The notes under the pieces were generated by a model. It was not told the origin of the DNA and made no database searches. It saw nothing but the letters and a program-made list of their open reading frames with translations. Positions 9,137 to 63,586 of a DNA stretch of 64,000 bases are shown here, in pieces. The stretch is taken from NCBI GenBank assembly GCA_964582365.1, contig CAZOQV010000001.1:12712-76711 (forward strand). The letters run 5' to 3'. Position numbers and translations under genes: made by a program. Every line of letters begins with the position of its first letter. Position 1 is the stretch's first letter. Source of the stretch: an uncultured Gammaproteobacteria bacterium. GTDB taxonomy: Bacteria; Patescibacteriota; Microgenomatia; UBA12405.

Positions 9137-9541
9137 ATGAATTTGACTTCACCAGCTAATTGGGAAGAATTAGTTAATTTAAAATCAATTTTACCAACTT
9201 GTACCCCAGAATTTGCTCGCTTAGCTGAAGATCTTAGATATTATCGTCTTTATCAAGAACTAGTCCCCAAAAAAATCAGATTAGAGATATTGGAAAGACG
9301 ATTATCTGATGACATTTGTTTTGCTAAAAATATGTTTCCTTATACTCGTCTTTTAGTTAATTTACCAAAAGTAAAACAATATTGTCTTTGGTCAAAAAAT
9401 GGTAAATTGTCCGACGAAGAAGTTGAAGCAAAAATTAATAAAACATTTCCCTCGAAATCATATTTTTGGTTTGAAAATTCAGCAGCCACTAAATCTGTTC
9501 CTGAAATCTGGCATTGCCATGTCTTTGTTAAAGAAGATTAA
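9137..9541 (+). CDS. Hypothetical protein with a conserved C-terminal motif WHCHVFVKE
   Basis: ORF only; no recognised domain. Confidence 0.35.
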   Translation: MNLTSPANWEELVNLKSILPTCTPEFARLAEDLRYYRLYQELVPKKIRLEILERRLSDDICFAKNMFPYTRLLVNLPKVKQYCLWSKNGKLSDEEVEAKINKTFPSKSYFWFENSAATKSVPEIWHCHVFVKED

Positions 9542-9586
9542 TTTGATATTATTAAAAGGGAAAAATTAAACACCCCTTTTTTAATT

Positions 9587-10654
9587 ATGAACAAATATCC
9601 GCTCTGTTTGTCGCTTGATGATGTTCTTTTATTACCTCAATTTTCTAAAATAAATTCTCGGTCAGAAGTCGATTTATCTTGGAAAATGGGTGATATTAAG
9701 TTAAAATTACCCTTAATTTCGGCCAATATGGATTGTGTTACTGGTGTCGACATGGCTGTTGCCTTAGGTAAAATTGGGGGACTTGGTGTAATTCCTCGTT
9801 TTGACAAACCAGAAATTCAATGTCAAAAAATTACAAAAATTAAGGCCGCCGGTGTTCCTGTTGCCGGTTCAATTGGTATTAAAGATGACGAATGGCAACG
9901 ACTTGAACTCCTAATCAAAACGGGTGTTGATCATATTAATATTGATGTTGCTCATGGCCATTTAAAACGAGTTCAAGATTTTTCTTATCAAATTAAAAAG
10001 AAATATCCCTTTATTAATTTATCAGCCGGAGTTGTTGGAACAGCCGATGGTGCCCGTGATCTTTTCAAAGCCGGTGTTGATATTGTTAAAGTTGGTGTTG
10101 GCCCTGGCAGTATTTGCACTACCAGAATTATGACTGGTTGTGGTGCTCCTCAGTTTACTGCCATCACCGATTGTGCCAAAGTTTCAAGACATTATCATAA
10201 AATAATTTGGGCTGATGGTGGTGTTAAAAATTCTGGTGATGCTGTCAAATGTTTGGCCGCCGGTGCCTCTGCTGTTGTTTTGGGTAATGTTTTTGCTGGT
10301 ACTGACGAAGCCCCTCCAGAAATTATTGATATTAATGGTCAAAAATATAAATCTTATAACGGTTCAACCAGTTCCATCGAAAAACAAAGACAATTAGGAA
10401 AAAATAACTCTGATAAAAACGGTCAGTATCTTAATCATATTGAAGGAGTTGAAGGATTTGTTCCTTACAAAGGTCCTCTGCTAGCACTAGTTGAAAAATT
10501 TATTGCGGGTATTAGATCTGGTTATTCTTATTGTGGAGCCACTAATACTCAAGAACTTTGGAAAAAAGCTAAATTTATTCAAGTCACCGCCGCCGGCCTT
10601 CGTGAAAATAATTTTCACGACATCATTTCTTCGTTGCCATCGTCACATAAATAA
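9587..10654 (+). CDS. IMP dehydrogenase/GMP reductase family enzyme (no CBS insert)
   Basis: The catalytic loop [24 protein letters not shown], the N-terminus [10 protein letters not shown]...ISANMDCVT, and the absence of CBS domains. Confidence 0.8.
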
Positions 10655-12141: not shown

Positions 12142-12786
12142 ATGAAAATTAATAAAATTTATGTCATTTTTCCCCTTATTTTAATTCTCATTTCTTTTGT
12201 TTTAGCCATCTTTTTTTATCCCATTTTTCCATCTCAAATTGCCACTCATTGGGGAATAAGCGGTCAAGCCGATGGTTATTCTTCAAAAGCTTTTGGCTTA
12301 TTTTTTATGCCGATTTTATCGGTCGTTTTATTTTTTCTTTTTATTTCTTTACCAAAAATAGATCCTTACAAAAAAAATTTTGATCAATTTAAAAAATATT
12401 TTCAAAATTTTATCAACCTAATTTTTGCCTTTTTCTTTTATATTTATTTAATTACCATTATTTGGAATTTAGGCTTTCGTTTCAACATGATTCAAATTCT
12501 TTGCCCGGCTTTTGCCGCCCTTTTTTATTATGCCGGAGTTTTAATGTCTCATGCCAAACGTAATTGGTTTGTTGGTATTCGCACTCCTTGGACTATGTCC
12601 AACGAAAAAGTTTGGGATAAAACCCATAAAATAGGTGGAAAACTTTTTAAACTAACTGGTATAATTTCTTTATTGTCTTTAATTTTACCTGATCTTTCAG
12701 TATTTTTTATTTTAGTTCCCATTCTTTTCACTACTATTTTTGTCTTTATTTATTCTTACGTTGAATATAAAAAAACCGTTATATAA
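12142..12786 (+). CDS. SdpI/YhfL-family (DUF1648) polytopic membrane protein
   Basis: The pattern IATHWGISGQADGYSSK followed by multiple TM helices. Confidence 0.55.
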   Translation: MKINKIYVIFPLILILISFVLAIFFYPIFPSQIATHWGISGQADGYSSKAFGLFFMPILSVVLFFLFISLPKIDPYKKNFDQFKKYFQNFINLIFAFFFYIYLITIIWNLGFRFNMIQILCPAFAALFYYAGVLMSHAKRNWFVGIRTPWTMSNEKVWDKTHKIGGKLFKLTGIISLLSLILPDLSVFFILVPILFTTIFVFIYSYVEYKKTVI

Positions 12787-49997: not shown

Positions 49998-50034
49998 TTG
50001 ACACCTTTTAGCAGTCGATCTATTATATTGCTAA
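49998..50034 (+). promoter_or_regulatory. Sigma70-type promoter (TTGACA-17-TATTAT) overlapped by a CIRCE-like inverted repeat TTAGCA-N15-TGCTAA, immediately upstream of hrcA
   Basis: TTGACA at 49998-50003 and TATTAT at 50021-50026; TTAGCA at 50008-50013 and TGCTAA at 50029-50034. The hrcA ATG is at 50036. Confidence 0.5.
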
Positions 50035-56666: not shown

Positions 56667-57362
56667 ATGAAAAATTATCAAGTTTCAGAAATTAAAAATC
56701 TTTTAGGAACCGCCAAAACGGCTCTTATTACTGTTTCTCAATTAAGTATTGACAGTATTGGTTCGGCTTTGGCCTTAGCTTTAATTTTAAAGAAATCCAA
56801 CATTTCGGTTAAAGTTTTTTGTCCCAATCCAACCGATGCTAATTATTCCAAATTAAGTGGTCTTGAACTTTTAACTAACAATTATAATCAAAACGACTTA
56901 ATCGTCACCCTTGACTATCCTTTAGATCAAATTGAAAAAGTTACTTACAACCAAGATGGTGGAAAACTAAATTTAGTTGTCCAAACCAAAGATGGTTCTC
57001 AAAAAGTTGCTGAAAATCAAATTTTAATTAGTAATCAAGCTACCGCTGCTGACATTAACTTTATGTTAGGCGATGAAAACCTTTTAGGTGCCAATGCTAA
57101 TATGGTTCAAAAAGGTAACTGGATTAATATTTCTCCATCTAGTATTGAAAAAACTTGGGCCAAAGTAAACATTATTGATCAAGATGCTCCTTTTTCTGAA
57201 ATCTTAACCTTTTTATTACCTATGCTCGATTTACAATTGAACCCAGAAGCAGCTAAAAATCTTTTAATTGCTCTTCGTGTTGCTACCCAATCTTTCTCAA
57301 TTAATGTTTCTCCTGAAACATTTGAAGCTGGTGCCAATTGTCTCCGCGCCACCCAAGGCTAA
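56667..57362 (+). CDS. Hypothetical protein, possibly a degenerate DHH-family (NrnA-like) N-terminal domain
   Basis: DSIGSALALALIL resembles the DHH motif DGDAIGSALAL. Confidence 0.35.
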   Translation: MKNYQVSEIKNLLGTAKTALITVSQLSIDSIGSALALALILKKSNISVKVFCPNPTDANYSKLSGLELLTNNYNQNDLIVTLDYPLDQIEKVTYNQDGGKLNLVVQTKDGSQKVAENQILISNQATAADINFMLGDENLLGANANMVQKGNWINISPSSIEKTWAKVNIIDQDAPFSEILTFLLPMLDLQLNPEAAKNLLIALRVATQSFSINVSPETFEAGANCLRATQG

Positions 57363-57748: not shown

Positions 57749-59956
57749 ATGAAAATGTATACAAAAGATATTTTAGTGGGCGACAAAAAAATTACCCTTT
57801 CAACAGGAAAAATCGCTCCTCAAACCAATGCCTCTGTCGTGGCTCAATACGGCAACACCACTGTTTTAGCCACAGTTTTAATGGGTAAAACCGATGAATC
57901 AAAAGATTATTTTCCTTTATCGATCGAATTTCAAGACAAACTTTACGCTGGTGGTATTGTCAAAGGTAGTAAGTGGATGAAGCGAGAAGGTGGTCCTTCA
58001 GACACAGCAGTTCTTTCCGGCCGAATTATTGATAGATCTTTACGTCCTCTTTTCCCAGCTGATTTTTTAAACGAAGTTCAAATTATCGTTACTGTTTTAA
58101 GTAACGATAAAAATAATGATACTGTTATTCCAGCTTTTACCGCTGCTGCTGCTGCCTTGGCTATTTCTGACATTCCTTTCAATGGTCCAGTTTCCGTCGT
58201 TCGCGTTGGTTTAATCAATGAAAAATTAGTTTTAAACCCATCAACCGAAGAATTATTAAATTCTTCCATGGATCTTTTAGTTTGCACTGGCCCTGCTGGT
58301 GTCAATATGATTGAATGCGATGCCAACATTGTTTCCAACGATATTGCTTTAAAAGCCATAGAGTTGGCTAAAACTACTGGTGATGAAATTAATAAAGAAA
58401 TTACTGCTTGGGTCAAAGAATGTGGTAAAGAAAAATTAAAATATGAATCCGCTGGCCCATCTGCTGAATTAATCACTGAAATCGAATCTAAAATTAAAAA
58501 AGATGTTGAATCATTTTTAGAAGCTGGTGTTGATGGTGGTCACATGATTGGTCAAGAAAAAATCACTGATCGAATTTTAGAAGAATATAAAGCTAAAATT
58601 AAATCAGAAGAAGTTTCTAAAAATCATGTCGTCGCGGCCGTTGATTCTATTGTTAGATCTGCTCTTAGAGTTAGAACTATTAAAGGTCTTCGTTATGATC
58701 ACCGAAAAATGGATGAAGTTCGTCCTTTAATTGTCGAAGCTGGTGTTTTACCATGTGTCCATGGTTCTGCATTTTTCCAAAGAGGTTTAACTCAAGCCAT
58801 TACTGTCACCGCTCTTGCTCCTTTAGCCGACAAACAATATCTCGAAGATTCTAGTGGTGAAACCACCAAGAGATATATCCACTATTATTCTGCCGCTCCT
58901 TACTCAACTGGTCAAACCGGTCGTGTTGGTCGCCCAGGTCGTCGTGAAATTGGTCATGGTGCCCTAGCTGAAAAAGCTCTACTTCCAGTTATTCCTTCAG
59001 AAGAAGAATTTCCCTACACTATTGTTTTAACTTCCGAAATTATGTCTCAAAACGGATCATCTTCTATGGCTTCAACTTGTGGATCCACCATGTCTTTAAT
59101 GGACGCTGGTGTTCCTATTAAAGATAAAGTCGCTGGAATTTCCATCGGTCTTATGGCTGAAACTGATGATAAATATGTTTTATTAACTGATATTGCCGGT
59201 ATTGAAGACCACGATGGTGATATGGATTTCAAAATTACTGGTACTCGAAACGGTATTACTGCCATTCAATTAGACATCAAAAGAGAAGGTATTACTTTAC
59301 CTATGATTTCCGATACTTTTGTCGCTTCAACTAAAGCTCGACTTCAAATTTTAGACAAAATGGAAGCCACTTTAGCTGCTCCTCGTGCTGAATTATCTGA
59401 ATTTGCTCCAAAAATTAAAATGGTTGCTTTACCAGAAGACAAAATTGGCGAAGTAATTGGCAGTGGTGGCAAAACCATCAAAGCCTTAATGGAAAAATAT
59501 CAAGTTCAAATTGATATTGATGATAATGGTAAAGCTTCAATTTCTGCCCAAAATCAGGAAAATATTGATAATGCTGCTTATGAAATCGAATCCATGATTA
59601 AAGAAGTTCAAATTGGTGAAGATTACGAAGGTGTGGTTACTCGAGTTGAAAACTTTGGTGCTTTTGTTGAACTCTTACCAGGTCGAGAAGCCTTGCTTCA
59701 TGTTTCTGAAATGACAGGTGGATTTTTATCCGATCCTTCAACTATTATTAAAGTTGGTGATCGTTTAAATGTCAAAATCTCTGGATTTAACGACAATCAT
59801 CAAATTAAATTATCATCTCCTGAATTCAAAGCTGCTCATCCGGGTCAACCCAGAGAAGAAGGCCAAGGTCAAGATAATCGAACCGGTGGTTTCCGAAATT
59901 TCACTCCACCTCGTCGAGACGATAACCGCAATGGCGGTTTCCGCCCTCGAAGATAA
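57749..59956 (+). CDS. pnp: Polynucleotide phosphorylase with an RGG-type Arg/Gly-rich C-terminal tail
   Basis: Two RNase PH domains, KH and S1 domains, and the tail GGFRNFTPPRRDDNRNGGFRPRR. Confidence 0.9.
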   Translation: MKMYTKDILVGDKKITLSTGKIAPQTNASVVAQYGNTTVLATVLMGKTDESKDYFPLSIEFQDKLYAGGIVKGSKWMKREGGPSDTAVLSGRIIDRSLRPLFPADFLNEVQIIVTVLSNDKNNDTVIPAFTAAAAALAISDIPFNGPVSVVRVGLINEKLVLNPSTEELLNSSMDLLVCTGPAGVNMIECDANIVSNDIALKAIELAKTTGDEINKEITAWVKECGKEKLKYESAGPSAELITEIESKIKKDVESFLEAGVDGGHMIGQEKITDRILEEYKAKIKSEEVSKNHVVAAVDSIVRSALRVRTIKGLRYDHRKMDEVRPLIVEAGVLPCVHGSAFFQRGLTQAITVTALAPLADKQYLEDSSGETTKRYIHYYSAAPYSTGQTGRVGRPGRREIGHGALAEKALLPVIPSEEEFPYTIVLTSEIMSQNGSSSMASTCGSTMSLMDAGVPIKDKVAGISIGLMAETDDKYVLLTDIAGIEDHDGDMDFKITGTRNGITAIQLDIKREGITLPMISDTFVASTKARLQILDKMEATLAAPRAELSEFAPKIKMVALPEDKIGEVIGSGGKTIKALMEKYQVQIDIDDNGKASISAQNQENIDNAAYEIESMIKEVQIGEDYEGVVTRVENFGAFVELLPGREALLHVSEMTGGFLSDPSTIIKVGDRLNVKISGFNDNHQIKLSSPEFKAAHPGQPREEGQGQDNRTGGFRNFTPPRRDDNRNGGFRPRR

Positions 59957-59994
59957 TCTAAGCAATTGGTTCTAAATTCTTGTATAATTTTTTA

Positions 59995-61056
59995 ATGACT
60001 GAAAATTTGTTAACCACTCAAGAGGCGATTAAACGTCTAACTGATAAAGTTGCCTCCGTCAAGGTTCCTGAAAATTTAGCGTCTAAATTACAGGAGCTTT
60101 TTATGCAATTAGAAATCAATGCTCAAAATGAAATGTCTTTTTGGTCAAGTTATTACAACATTTCTAAATACATTGATTGGGTCATTTCCGTTCCTTGGTT
60201 TAATCAAACTAAAGACATTTTAGATTTAAATTATGCCAAACAAAAACTTGATGAAGAACATTTTGGTTTAGACACCATCAAAGAGAGACTCATGGAATAT
60301 ATTTCCGTCATGTCTCTTCAAAAAATGCGTAATCCAAGTGAATCAGTTCATGCCCCTGTTCTTTTGTTTGTTGGTTTAGTTGGTACTGGTAAAACCACCA
60401 TGGCCAAATCTATTGCTCAAGTTTTAGGTCGTGAAATCATCAGAATTCCTTTTGGTGGTTTAGGTGATGCTAATTATCTTCGTGGTCGTTCTCGAACCAA
60501 TCCTGATTCTGAGCCAGGTCAAATTATAAAAGGTTTGGTCAATTGTAAAAGTAATAATCCAGTTATTTTATTAGATGAAATTGACCGTGTGGCCGACGAT
60601 GCTCTCAACACCATCATGGGTGTTTTAGTTGAAATTCTTGACCCAGAACAGAATAATCATTTTACTGATCATTATTTAGACTATCCGGTTGATCTTTCTC
60701 AGGCCATTTTTTGTGCTACCTGTAACAACACTTCTCGTATTGCTACCGCTGTTATGGATCGTTTGGAAGTTATTCAAATGCCATCATATAATGACGACGA
60801 AAAAACTGCCATTGCCAGAGACTATCTCTTACCTCGAGCTTTGAAGAATAATGGTTTAACCGTAAATGATCTTCAAGTTTCAGATAATATGTGGTCACAA
60901 ATTGTCCGACCTCTTGGTTTCGACGCTGGTGTTCGTACTCTTCAACGTAATATTGAAGGTATGTGTCGCAAAGTTGCCAAAATTATTTTAGAAGGTAAAA
61001 TTCGACAAGTTGTCGTCGACGAATCTAACGTCAAAACTTTCTTACCTCAATGGTAA
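59995..61056 (+). CDS. Lon-like AAA+ ATPase module with no N-terminal substrate domain and no C-terminal Ser-Lys protease domain
   Basis: It aligns by eye to E. coli Lon residues of about 250-585: YIDWVISVPW, HFGLDTIKERLMEY, Walker A GLVGTGKT, LLDEID, VLDPEQN...DHYL, AGVRTLQR. It ends 80 nt before rnj. Confidence 0.7.
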   Translation: MTENLLTTQEAIKRLTDKVASVKVPENLASKLQELFMQLEINAQNEMSFWSSYYNISKYIDWVISVPWFNQTKDILDLNYAKQKLDEEHFGLDTIKERLMEYISVMSLQKMRNPSESVHAPVLLFVGLVGTGKTTMAKSIAQVLGREIIRIPFGGLGDANYLRGRSRTNPDSEPGQIIKGLVNCKSNNPVILLDEIDRVADDALNTIMGVLVEILDPEQNNHFTDHYLDYPVDLSQAIFCATCNNTSRIATAVMDRLEVIQMPSYNDDEKTAIARDYLLPRALKNNGLTVNDLQVSDNMWSQIVRPLGFDAGVRTLQRNIEGMCRKVAKIILEGKIRQVVVDESNVKTFLPQW

Positions 61057-61184: not shown

Positions 61185-62930
61185 ATGTTAAATCAAAAAA
61201 CAAAAATTATTAATGCTCCAAATCAGGTCCGAGAATATCATTCCGGCACTGATTCTGTCCGAATCAGTTCACTTGGTGGGTTCGGTGACGTCACTCAGAA
61301 TATGTTCGTTTACGAATTTATTCCCAGTGGTGATGTTTCCAAAAGCCAAATTATTATAGTCGATTGTGGCGTCGGTTTTCCTGAAGAAGATGCTTTTGGC
61401 GTCGATCTTCAAATTCCCGACACTCATTATCTTCAAGATAAAAAAGACCGAATTTTAGGCATATTTATTACTCATGGTCACGAAGACCATATCGGTGCTG
61501 TCCGTTTTATTCTGCCTATTTTAGGTCAAAATATTCCGGTTTATGCCCCAAAGCTTGCCGCTGCTTTTATTGAAGCCAGATTGGCCGAAAGCAATGTTCG
61601 TGCTAATCTTCAAACTTACGACAATCTAACTCCGCCAATTACTAAAGGCGTTTTTACTATTGACCCAATTCGTCTTACTCATTCTATTCCTGACACTTTT
61701 CACTTCGCCATTACCACTCCCATAGGTATTTTTTATCACGGTTCTGATTTTAAGTTTGATCTTTTCCCTCTTGATGGTAAAGGTGCTGATTATTCCCATA
61801 TTGCTCGTGTCGGTCAAACTGGAAAAGTTATTGCCTTAATGTCAGATAGTTTAGGTTCTGATCATGAAGGTTGGTCTCCATCTGAAAGTTCTATTGCTCA
61901 AAATTTCAAACAAGAAATTATTTCGGCTAAAGGGCGTGTTTTTGTTACTTCAATCTCCAGTAACATTATTCGTTGGACTCAAGCCATTGAATACGGCAAA
62001 AGTGTCGGTCGAAAAATAGTTATCGTTGGCTTTTCCGTTGATCGAGCCATCAGTATTGCCAAAGATTTGGGTTATGTAAATCTAGCCGATTCTGATATTA
62101 TTCCTATCGAACGAGTTAAAAACTTTTCTGAAAATAAACTTATGTTTTTAGTTGCTGGTTTTGCCGGTCAACCAGATTCTGCTCTAAGCAAAATGGTTAT
62201 GGGCAAACATAAAGTTAAAATAAAATCCGGAGATAAGGTAATTTTTTCATCTCCAGATTATATCCCTGGCACCACTTCTAATATTTTCAGCATGATTGAT
62301 CTTTTATCAAAAATGGGGGCTGAAGTCGTCTACGGTGAAAAAGAAGAATTACATGTTTCTGGTCACGGATATCAAAAAGAACATGCTCTTTTAATTAATT
62401 TATTAAAACCAAAATATCTATTACCAATTGGTGGTAATTATCGTCATCTTAAAAGTTATCAACAGATGGCTAAAAAACTAGGTTACACTGAAGAACAGGT
62501 AATTTTACCTGATTTCGATGGTACAGCCACTTTTCATAATAATGGAACAGTTGACACTAATTATCATATTTCCATTAGAAAAGTTTTAATTGATGGATTT
62601 GGTGTTGGTGATGTCGGAACTACTGTTTTGCGTGATCGAAAAGTATTGGCTGAAGATGGTATGTTTTCGGTTGTTCTTTTAGTTGAAAAAATATCTGGTC
62701 AATTAACTAAACCGCCAGTAGTTCTCAGTCGAGGTTTTGTTTTTATGAAAGAAAACACCGAGCTGATCGATTATTTAAAACTTGAAATTACTAATAAATT
62801 TAATCAAGCCACCAGTTCTCCGGCCAATATGGATTTCATTCGTGAAGAAGTTCAGGCTTATGTCGAGGAAATTATCTACAAAAAAACCGGCCGCCAACCC
62901 ATGGTCTTGCCGTTGGTGATTGAGGTTTAA
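61185..62930 (+). CDS. rnj: Ribonuclease J (metallo-beta-lactamase/beta-CASP)
   Basis: HGHEDHIGA, beta-CASP motifs and a C-terminal domain. ATG at 61185; a TTG at 61137 is in frame. Confidence 0.85.
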   Translation: MLNQKTKIINAPNQVREYHSGTDSVRISSLGGFGDVTQNMFVYEFIPSGDVSKSQIIIVDCGVGFPEEDAFGVDLQIPDTHYLQDKKDRILGIFITHGHEDHIGAVRFILPILGQNIPVYAPKLAAAFIEARLAESNVRANLQTYDNLTPPITKGVFTIDPIRLTHSIPDTFHFAITTPIGIFYHGSDFKFDLFPLDGKGADYSHIARVGQTGKVIALMSDSLGSDHEGWSPSESSIAQNFKQEIISAKGRVFVTSISSNIIRWTQAIEYGKSVGRKIVIVGFSVDRAISIAKDLGYVNLADSDIIPIERVKNFSENKLMFLVAGFAGQPDSALSKMVMGKHKVKIKSGDKVIFSSPDYIPGTTSNIFSMIDLLSKMGAEVVYGEKEELHVSGHGYQKEHALLINLLKPKYLLPIGGNYRHLKSYQQMAKKLGYTEEQVILPDFDGTATFHNNGTVDTNYHISIRKVLIDGFGVGDVGTTVLRDRKVLAEDGMFSVVLLVEKISGQLTKPPVVLSRGFVFMKENTELIDYLKLEITNKFNQATSSPANMDFIREEVQAYVEEIIYKKTGRQPMVLPLVIEV

Positions 62931-62940
62931 ACTTTTTCTA

Positions 62941-62972
62941 TTGTAGAGACGCGATTAATCGCGTCTCTACAA
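62941..62972. repeat. REP-like palindrome copy 2: a perfect 32-nt palindrome TTGTAGAGACGCGATTAATCGCGTCTCTACAA
   Basis: Self-complementary over its whole length; lies 11 nt after the rnj stop and 42 nt before the transposase-like gene. Confidence 0.65.
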
Positions 62973-63013: not shown

Positions 63014-63586
63014 ATGGTAATTGTAAATAATCCAACCAAATTTGCCGACAAATTTAAACTAAAATCATCTCGTCTAACCAGTTGGGATTATTCCACCCCT
63101 GGATATTATTTCATCACCATCTGTACTCTTAATCATAATAATTTCTTTGGAAAAATTATTAATAATAAAATAATTTATTCAAAACGTGGTGAAATTGCTA
63201 AATCTGAATTATTAAAAACATTCGAAATTAGAAAAAATATTAAATTACACGAATGGATTATTATACCTAATCATGTTCATATTTTAATGGAAATAAAATA
63301 TCAAAATTATCAACTAAATAGATGTAGAGACGTTCCGCAGAACGTCTCTACAGAATCGAAAAAGTTTTCAGTTATTTCTCCTAGATCAAATTCTATTTCA
63401 AATATTATTAAACAATTCAAATCCGCCGTTACAAGGCAAATCAATCCCCAAACCATATTTTTTGGATGGCAACCCCGTTTCCACGATGAAATCATTAAAG
63501 ATGAAAAAAAATTATTAATAGTCAAAGAATATATTAAAAATAATATTATAAATTGGAACAAGGATAAATATTTTATAAAATCATAA
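63014..63586 (+). CDS. IS200/IS605-family HuH transposase-like protein of the REP-associated (RAYT/TnpA_REP) type, with the catalytic Tyr position apparently substituted
   Basis: The HuH motif PNHVHILMEI, helix KQFKSAVTRQIN, and C-terminal WQPRFHDEIIKDE, which parallels RayT WQRNYYEHVIRNE. An in-frame palindrome lies in the CDS. Confidence 0.55.
   Translation: MVIVNNPTKFADKFKLKSSRLTSWDYSTPGYYFITICTLNHNNFFGKIINNKIIYSKRGEIAKSELLKTFEIRKNIKLHEWIIIPNHVHILMEIKYQNYQLNRCRDVPQNVSTESKKFSVISPRSNSISNIIKQFKSAVTRQINPQTIFFGWQPRFHDEIIKDEKKLLIVKEYIKNNIINWNKDKYFIKS
63323..63352. repeat. REP-like palindrome copy 3 (13-bp arms TGTAGAGACGTTC/GAACGTCTCTACA, 4-nt centre), embedded in frame in the transposase-like CDS
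   Basis: It encodes RCRDVPQNVST between the HuH motif and the downstream helix. Confidence 0.6.

Follow-up and report, generated by a model that had tools for sequence, protein, structure and literature searches.

Lon is the textbook AAA+ motor fused to its own protease. Within the HCLR clade of AAA+ proteins, peptidases usually work with AAA+ partners that are free-standing, and two of these, ClpX and HslU, carry an aromatic-hydrophobic-Gly pore loop together with peptidase-docking elements (the IGF loop and a C-terminal tail). LonC has a degenerate, inactive ATPase. It has been stated that "all Lons ... contain an ATPase and protease domains" (PMC9569914). The protease domain is kept even in LonC (Lon-like-Ms of Meiothermus taiwanensis) and in LonB/LonBA, which are derived from Lon and have an altered domain set (PMC9569914). 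In LonA, an N-terminal three-helix bundle (NTD-3H) forms a cap over the AAA+ ring (10.1101/617159). Residues Tyr398 and Ile399 of Lon were identified by cryo-EM and mutagenesis as a pincer that grips the substrate, and the replacement I399A severely impairs degradation with the ATPase hardly altered (10.1101/617159; PMC8913295). For LONP1, one report describes a protease-independent, chaperone-like anti-aggregation activity that requires ATP hydrolysis (PMC8368198).

A gene encoding a protease-less Lon-type AAA+ ATPase was identified at positions 59995..61056 (+) of the 64-kb stretch of DNA analysed here (the window). The gene starts with ATG at 59995 and ends with a stop codon at 61054-61056, and it was recognized by matches to Pfam, TIGR00763 and Lon structures in the PDB, by an AF2 model and by Foldseek. 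The product contains 353 aa, and the frame, with its stop codon, is the 354-aa ORF of the preliminary description. Pfam detects an AAA domain (PF00004, residues 123-261) and a Lon_lid domain (PF22667, residues 284-335) and no further domain; the S16 domain PF05362, which carries the Ser-Lys dyad, gave no match in the protein. The TIGR00763 "lon" model is matched at positions 252-570 of 795 (E 3e-96), and the score of 323.7 bits lies under the cutoff of 608.05 because the model is unmatched at both ends. The PRK10787 score (243) is also under its cutoff (891). In the PDB, the protein is matched from end to end by the ATPase part of the B. subtilis, Meiothermus, Thermus, E. coli, Y. pestis and human Lons (E 1e-63 to 2e-76), including residues 10-338 of the B. 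subtilis Lon 3m6a (E 2e-76). In the AF2 monomer (pLDDT 87, pTM 0.81), three helices at the N-terminus are followed by an alpha/beta subdomain of the Rossmann type and a lid made of helices, and the best 50 PDB matches retrieved with this model by Foldseek are all Lon or LONP1 ATPase modules (TM ~0.8). The PADLOC defence models gave only generic AAA-core matches to the ATPase, of which the best was DolB (46 bits) in the P-loop region.

The three-helix bundle (residues 8-65; 60016..60189, +) is composed of AF2 helices 8-20, 26-42 and 46-65, aligns with LonA residues ~252-300 and is the equivalent of the LonA NTD-3H. The protein starts at about LonA residue 252, and it lacks the LAN domain and long helix found ahead of NTD-3H in LonA. 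The AAA+ alpha/beta subdomain (residues 78-262; 60226..60780, +), delimited by PF00004 and the AF2 secondary structure, is followed by the Lon-type lid, or alpha subdomain (residues 263-353; 60781..61053, +), which corresponds to PF22667 and includes Trp300, an RPLGFD motif and the sensor-2 Arg314. Three residues follow the final helix of the lid, and the C-terminus falls where LonA would start its linker toward the protease; structure alignments place it at the point where the protease-domain linker of the solved Lons starts. No S16 protease or LAN domain was detected in any frame of the 64-kb window by tblastn with queries taken from the N-terminal and the protease domain of three full-length Lons (best E 0.2-1), and no full-length Lon was found within the window. 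A frameshift or a hidden protease domain is ruled out by these searches. The gene was confirmed to encode the Lon motor alone, a segment that begins with the three-helix bundle and finishes with the AAA+ lid. The blocks of the Lon ATPase core listed in the preliminary description (YIDW..VPW, H.GL...K.R..EY, Walker A GLVGTGKT, Walker B LLDEID, LDPEQN and AGVR.L.R) were all found, and its statements that the frame ends before the Ser-Lys protease domain and has no N-terminal substrate domain agree with the Pfam and tblastn results.

The protein shares three elements with LonA (three-helix bundle, AAA+ alpha/beta subdomain and Lon-specific lid), with 37-40% identity across its 353 aa. Walker A, Walker B, sensor-1, the arginine finger, sensor-2 and the LDPEQN block occupy the same positions in both, and the predicted fold superposes on the Lon and LONP1 ATPase modules. 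Unlike LonA, the family has no LAN/PUA-like N domain, no long coiled-coil helix and no S16 Ser-Lys protease domain, and its pore loop 1 reads x-Pro-Asp/Glu-Ala/Ser-Glu instead of Tyr-Ile/Val-Gly-Ala-Met. Of five features of LonA membership, only the AAA+/lid/three-helix module is present; the protease domain, the LAN domain, a score above the curated cutoff and the pore-loop pincer are all lacking. The name "Lon protease" should not be used for the family protein. LonC and LonB/LonBA resemble the family as Lon derivatives with altered domain sets, whereas the family has an intact ATPase, no protease and no membrane anchor; LonC, with its protease kept and its ATPase dead, is the mirror image of the family. 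ClpX and HslU are likewise single free-standing AAA+ modules of the HCLR clade encoded apart from the protease, but neither their pore loop nor their docking elements are evident in the family. The chaperone-like activity of LONP1/Pim1 requires the Lon ATPase rather than proteolysis (PMC8368198), but it is known from a full-length enzyme with intact pore loops and N domain.

The best 120 database clusters (69-100% identity) all have lengths of 352-353 aa. A profile search added members with 52-56% identity and 352-358 aa, giving a total of more than 130 clusters at 52-100% identity with lengths of 352-358 aa. Further clusters, found by an exhaustive search of representatives at 50% identity, are also protease-less (348-703 aa), with no LAN or S16 domain in any of them. 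Some of these clusters carry disordered extensions, which are Gln/Pro-rich at the N-terminus or of low complexity at the C-terminus. Among the named members, the NCBI label is [quoted passage not shown] and the JGI label is "ATP-dependent Lon protease". Neither Pfam nor NCBIfam has a family for the protease-less ATPase in particular, and no paper describing the family was found among full-text results pairing Lon with CPR, Patescibacteria or protease-less terms.

A scan of one genome per species returned 80 loci, of which 42 belong to Patescibacteria (at least 42% identity) and 38 are canonical Lon loci of other phyla. The 42 family loci come from Shapiro-, Ames-, Levy-, Roizman-, Davies-, Pace- and Nomurabacteria, from "Saccharibacteria" and from several evidently mislabelled MAGs. 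The stop codon is located 0-9 codons past the lid in 42/42 of these loci, and no S16 or LAN similarity is present within 10 kb on either side at any of them. In the same scan, S16 was found immediately downstream in all 38 canonical loci, which served as positive controls, so the scan was able to reveal a protease domain where one is present. The window gene shows a dN/dS of 0.09-0.17 against three orthologues, a range that indicates purifying selection on the family. The family is best explained as a conserved, LonA-descended protein of Patescibacteria (CPR) from which the LAN and S16 domains have been permanently lost.

There is almost no probability that the gene instead derives from a full-length lon by recent truncation, by decay to a pseudogene or through an error of assembly or reading frame. 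The sole point in favour of such an origin is that the ORF end coincides with the start of the LonA protease linker; against it stand the identical length of 352-353 aa across more than 120 independent clusters and assemblies, the position of the stop codon in 42 species, and a downstream region in which no frame holds S16-like sequence and rnj is only 80-128 nt away. The recent truncation offered in the preliminary description is refuted by the length conserved in >130 clusters and 42 species-level loci and by the dN/dS of ~0.1, whereas its other proposal, a genuine protease-less Lon-like protein, is strongly supported by the same conservation together with the invariant ATPase residues and by Patescibacteria relatives that are protease-less at every locus.

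The residues of the ATPase were counted in an alignment of 193 family sequences and 41 canonical LonA sequences. The equivalent elements of E. coli LonA are Walker A at 356-363, Walker B at 419-424, N473, R484 and R542 (PMC9569914). Walker A of the window protein, GLVGTGKT (residues 127-134; 60373..60396, +), keeps Lys133, and its Gly, Lys and Thr are present in 193/193 family sequences. The Pro-Pro of the LonA motif GPPGVGKT is replaced by Leu-Val in the window protein and by Leu-Val/Ala/Gln in the family; at position 128, Leu is found in 188/193 family members versus Pro in 41/41 canonical Lons. Walker B, VILLDEID (residues 190-197; 60562..60585, +), contains Asp194 and Glu195, each conserved in 193/193. 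The sensor-1 Asn244 (60724-60726) and the arginine finger Arg256 (60760-60762), which together span 60724..60762 (+), are also conserved in 193/193, and the sensor-2 Arg314 (60934-60936, +) in 192/193. K133, D194/E195, N244, R256 and R314, including the Walker B and sensor residues, are accordingly kept in 192-193 of the 193 family sequences. The lid bears a signature of the family, Trp300 (192/193) with RPLGFD, versus x-x-YTRE in LonA.

As judged by this alignment, every residue for ATP binding and hydrolysis is invariant, including the trans-acting arginine finger. We infer that Lon-like ring assembly and ATP consumption have been kept, because the catalytic and arginine-finger residues are invariant. 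The protease domain supplies much of the ring interface of LonA, and it is the invariant arginine finger from which a hexamer lacking that domain is predicted.

The pore loops differ from those of LonA. Canonical LonA pore loop 1 reads His-Arg-Arg-Thr-Tyr-Ile/Val-Gly-Ala-Met/Leu-Pro-Gly, with Tyr in 41/41, Ile or Val in 41/41 and Gly in 39/41 sequences. In the window protein this loop has been rebuilt as RSRTNPDSEPG (residues 165-175; 60487..60519, +), where Asn169 corresponds to Tyr398, Pro170 to Ile399, Asp171 to Gly and Glu173 to Met/Leu. The Tyr398 position is unconstrained in the family (H in 42, Y in 37, N in 36, R in 29 and F in 13 of 193 sequences, and others), whereas the Ile/Val position has become Pro in 164/193, the Gly position Asp/Glu in 177/193 and the Met/Leu position Glu in 189/193. 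Pore loop 2, RVADDALNTIM (residues 198-208; 60586..60618, +), has also been rebuilt. Where LonA has aromatic-Arg-Gly-Asp, the window protein has Ala-Leu-Asn-Thr and the family has Ala-Leu/Arg-Asn/Ala-Thr/Asp. Position 203 is Ala in 159 family sequences versus Phe in 23, Trp in 8 and Tyr in 6 of the canonical Lons. The two positions preceding this Ala (201-202) are mostly Asp or Glu in the family and Asp-Asp in the window protein. By these counts, the engine has been kept and the part that contacts the substrate has been rewritten. Some residual gripping ability is possible in some family members, because Tyr or Phe is present at the Tyr398 position in 50/193 (26%). The C-terminus ends in FLPQW within the closest clade only and in PQW, QMY, NYY, QAW, SEV and others across the family; given this variation, no conserved C-terminal docking motif of the HbYX type is evident.

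The ATPase gene (X) is located in a block with the order hrcA-grpE-dnaK-dnaJ-nusA-infB-(DHH-like)-rpsO-pnp-X-rnj. The upstream neighbour, pnp (57749..59956, +), encodes a PNPase with two RNase_PH domains, KH and S1. The S1 domain ends at residue 689 and is followed by an Arg/Gly-rich tail of ~45 aa (residues 690-735; nt 59816-59953, +); such tails, of 33-107 aa, are also found at 30/32 related loci. The downstream neighbour, rnj (61185..62930, +), encodes RNase J (RNase_J_b_CASP, RNase_J_C and RMMBL). Its frame is open from TTG 61137, with ATG 61185 as the likely start, and the 80-nt gap between the two genes given in the preliminary description holds for the TTG and becomes 128 nt for the likelier ATG. 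The position between pnp and rnj was also given correctly, and the description of the gene held in each detail that was checked. In the two gaps that separate the three genes pnp, X and rnj, no terminator-like + strand site was found, and a strong intrinsic-terminator-like hairpin with a 14-bp stem and a T-rich tail lies just 3' of rnj (62941..62972, +). No Rfam family or tRNA was detected across the 64-kb window.

The order rpsO-pnp-X-rnj is present at about two-thirds of the family loci, from 86% down to ~46% protein identity. The end of pnp lies less than 400 nt upstream in 19/39 testable loci and within 10 kb in 7 more, and the start of rnj less than 400 nt downstream in 13/36 and within a few kb in 14 more. 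The linkage to pnp and rnj is missing at ~10/42 loci, where groESL, UDG or other genes are the neighbours. Divergently adjacent groES-groEL genes were found at 6/42 loci, in six species of a Roizmanbacteria-type clade with a conserved promoter-like motif, TTGTCAAGTG...TCTGCTAA, in front of the ATPase gene. Linkage to RNA decay is frequent and not obligatory, and linkage to proteostasis occurs in another clade. Further neighbours in the family include UDG, M16/M23 peptidases and unrelated genes.

A perfect TATAAT hexamer (59983..59988, +) is located 6 nt before the ATG of the ATPase gene, and no Shine-Dalgarno sequence precedes that ATG. This start arrangement is seen at 10/32 orthologous starts versus 2% of random ATGs, and at 6 of the 41 genes in the window (the ATPase gene, pnp and four others); consensus promoter matches around the ATPase gene are at chance level. 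The hexamer may be the gene's own promoter, yielding a leaderless mRNA, and because the arrangement recurs, separate and possibly leaderless transcription is as likely as an operon. The sole CIRCE-like repeat in the window lies upstream of hrcA; none was found ahead of the ATPase gene or in the intergenic regions beside groES. Control of the ATPase gene by HrcA/CIRCE is ruled out, as no CIRCE operator lies upstream.

The favoured reading, with a probability of about 0.55, is that the ATPase is a ring-forming, ATP-hydrolysing, non-proteolytic remodeller or chaperone derived from LonA, which would act without canonical threading. The predicted ring would keep ATP hydrolysis, and its channel would be lined by ~4 acidic residues per subunit with no conserved aromatic-hydrophobic pincer, so that proteins would probably not be threaded or unfolded hand over hand toward degradation. 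The protein would be non-proteolytic because it has no protease domain and no adjacent peptidase. It is also unlikely to be a canonical threading unfoldase, because the Tyr position is unconstrained and Pro and acidic residues are substituted beside it; the term unfoldase used in the preliminary description is doubtful for a protein in which neither the Tyr-Ile/Val-Gly of pore loop 1 nor the aromatic residue of pore loop 2 is conserved and acidic residues take their place. Its action would be an ATP-driven remodelling or chaperoning without proteolysis, and its clients would probably be basic or disordered segments. By analogy with LONP1, a protease-independent anti-aggregation role would be the simplest function left to such a module. 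The groES-groEL neighbour in one clade and the hrcA-grpE-dnaK-dnaJ genes ~7 kb upstream of the ATPase gene in the window offer a supporting context for a chaperone, but the groESL context is limited to 6/42 loci and no CIRCE operator is present upstream.

An accessory role in RNA degradation, in which the ring would bind PNPase and/or RNase J and act on them, or on basic RNA-binding clients, by remodelling or regulation, is unlikely. The conserved gene order over a wide range of protein identity, the proximity of pnp and rnj at many loci, the three genes without an intervening + strand terminator and with a strong one past rnj, and the co-occurrence of Arg/Gly-rich PNPase tails with acidic pore loops are all consistent with it. 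However, the linkage is missing at about a quarter of the loci given above, and synteny is weak functional evidence because CPR genomes conserve gene order generally. In addition, pnp and the ATPase gene each have their own -10-like element at the start codon and may be transcribed separately. The association with RNA metabolism proposed in the preliminary description is suggestive to this extent: it is favoured by the adjacency of pnp and rnj and opposed by loci that lack it, including the clade beside groES-groEL. A more specific form of this idea is quite doubtful. It holds that an acidic ring (~24 Asp/Glu per hexamer), in place of aromatic paddles, would grip Arg-rich disordered tails electrostatically, with the PNPase tail as a natural client, in a Patescibacteria-specific degradosome of PNPase, RNase J and a Lon-derived ring. 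The pairing of tail and pore is conjectural and confounded by shared ancestry. An analogy may be drawn with katanin and spastin, where a pore has a charge complementary to a disordered, oppositely charged tail; the central pore of katanin is reported to bind the negatively charged C-terminal tails of tubulin. These enzymes, however, are of another AAA+ clade, their charge is the opposite one, and aromatic residues are still at work in their pore loops.

The same motor could serve a split Lon, in which the ATPase would feed a self-compartmentalised peptidase, S16 or another, encoded by a gene of its own, in the manner of ClpX-ClpP or HslU-HslV. Such a partnership is improbable, although all ATPase residues are intact and free-standing motors are usual in the clade: split genes usually remain adjacent, and a separate S16 gene was found neither in the 64-kb window nor in the 10-kb flanks of the relatives. 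Moreover, neither the pore-loop-1 pincer for translocation nor the pore-loop-2 aromatic residue is conserved, and no docking motif is evident at a C-terminus that ends at the lid, because this end is unconserved across the family. Equally improbable is a regulatory paralogue that would co-assemble or compete with a full-length LonA of the same genome, forming mixed rings in which protease and LAN domains would be less numerous. The elements that make the ring contacts of LonA (NTD three-helix bundle, AAA+ interfaces and arginine finger) are retained, and identity to the LonA of many phyla is ~40%, but no full-length Lon of Patescibacteria occurs among the 38 canonical loci or among the named closest full-length matches, which, among those listed, are from Deinococcus, Spirochaetota and Clostridiales. 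The lid positions W300 and RPLGFD also differ from LonA.

The family shows a Lon motor retained on its own across a whole bacterial radiation under strong selection, with the ATPase residues intact and the gripping loops turned acidic. The family offers a natural experiment on the role of the Lon ATPase without proteolysis and on the function of an AAA+ ring without aromatic pore loops. The JGI label "ATP-dependent Lon protease" is wrong for the genes of this family and would inflate Lon counts in metabolic reconstructions of CPR. The finding bears on the quality control of protein, and possibly of RNA, in organisms with genomes of ~1 Mb.

The pnp gene upstream of the Lon-type ATPase gene encodes a polynucleotide phosphorylase (PNPase) with an Arg/Gly-rich C-terminal tail of 45 aa (window 59816-59953, residues 690-735; final residues ...GGFRPRR) that follows the S1 domain and is probably disordered. 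The PNPases of model bacteria terminate at the S1 domain. Of 32 related Patescibacteria loci, 30 encode PNPases with tails of 33-107 aa (L003-L005, L012-L026, L030-L031, L036-L037, L039, L041-L043, L046-L048 and L052), the exceptions being L009 and L044, where the tail comprises just 10-13 aa. The Patescibacteria-type rpsO-pnp-ATPase-rnj block is present in many public MAG records (L012, L014, L015, L016, L021, L024 and others) whose titles read "uncultured Gammaproteobacteria/Pseudomonadales bacterium" or "Candidatus Methanoperedens sp.", and these titles probably represent placeholder or mis-binned taxonomy.

Other genes flank this block. In model bacteria, the interval between infB and rpsO is occupied by rbfA and truB. 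The window carries there a gene for a 231-aa protein (56667-57362) that gives only a faint match to a DHH domain, and a similarly sized gene (231-251 aa) that has no Pfam match lies between infB and rpsO in L003 and L004. The window IF2 is short, and its length of 477 aa is consistent with the lack of the N-terminal region. Downstream, a strong rnj terminator (62941-62972) is directly followed by a 190-aa ORF (63014-63586), of which only the C-terminal part shows a weak match to the IS200-like Y1 transposases (PF01797, E = 3e-6).

A CIRCE-like inverted repeat, TTAGCAGTC-N9-TATTGCTAA, is located at 50008-50034, directly 5' of hrcA (50036), and heads the hrcA-grpE-dnaK-dnaJ genes; no CIRCE-like element was found upstream of the Lon-type ATPase gene in the window. 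The ATPase gene of a Roizmanbacteria-type clade (L032, L034, L035, L038, L040 and L045; about 9470-9970 in most of the six loci) adjoins groES-groEL and is divergent from it. A conserved motif, TTGTCAAGTG-N10-TCTGCTAA, lies 5' of the ATPase gene in this clade and looks more like a -35/-10 promoter than CIRCE. Three of the six loci also contain a convergent RNaseH-like (PF04308) gene 3' of the ATPase gene.

Within the protease-less family, disordered N-terminal extensions rich in Gln/Pro/Thr and 100-350 aa long occupy the position of the LonA N-terminal substrate-binding (LAN) domain in some branches, and other branches carry Ser/Asn-rich C-terminal extensions at the position of the LonA protease. 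The extended members include the database proteins P0143 and P0272 (669-703 aa), P0134, P0141, P0149 and P0266 and, as a second group, P0154 and P0161. Other architectures occur among the database matches. Some of the top matches, including P0121 (1113 aa) and P0124 (997 aa), have a hydrophobic N-terminus, then two or three Lon-type AAA+ modules in tandem and, after these, just one S16 protease domain; in P0121, the LonA-like pore loop is kept in the last module only. P0168 (1127 aa) and P0180 (973 aa) are canonical full-length Lons extended C-terminally past the protease domain, by about 300 extremely Lys/Arg/Asp-rich residues in P0168 and by about 400 aa in P0180. The P0180 extension is a low-complexity stretch rich in Ala/Ser/Pro/Glu that contains patches rich in Arg/Lys and has a basic end rich in Lys/Thr/Ala.

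Shine-Dalgarno sequences precede only about 3 of 51 gene starts in the window, and an A/T-rich context, "..aattATG", recurs at many of the starts. A TATAAT/TATACT hexamer is located 5-7 nt 5' of the ATG at 6 of 41 ATG starts, compared with 2.2% of random ATGs (p = 3e-4). Example gene starts are those at 12142, 18512, 20143, 45593 (minus strand), 57749 and 59995. The excess of the hexamer close to the ATG, together with the near-absence of Shine-Dalgarno sequences, suggests that leaderless mRNAs are frequent in the window.
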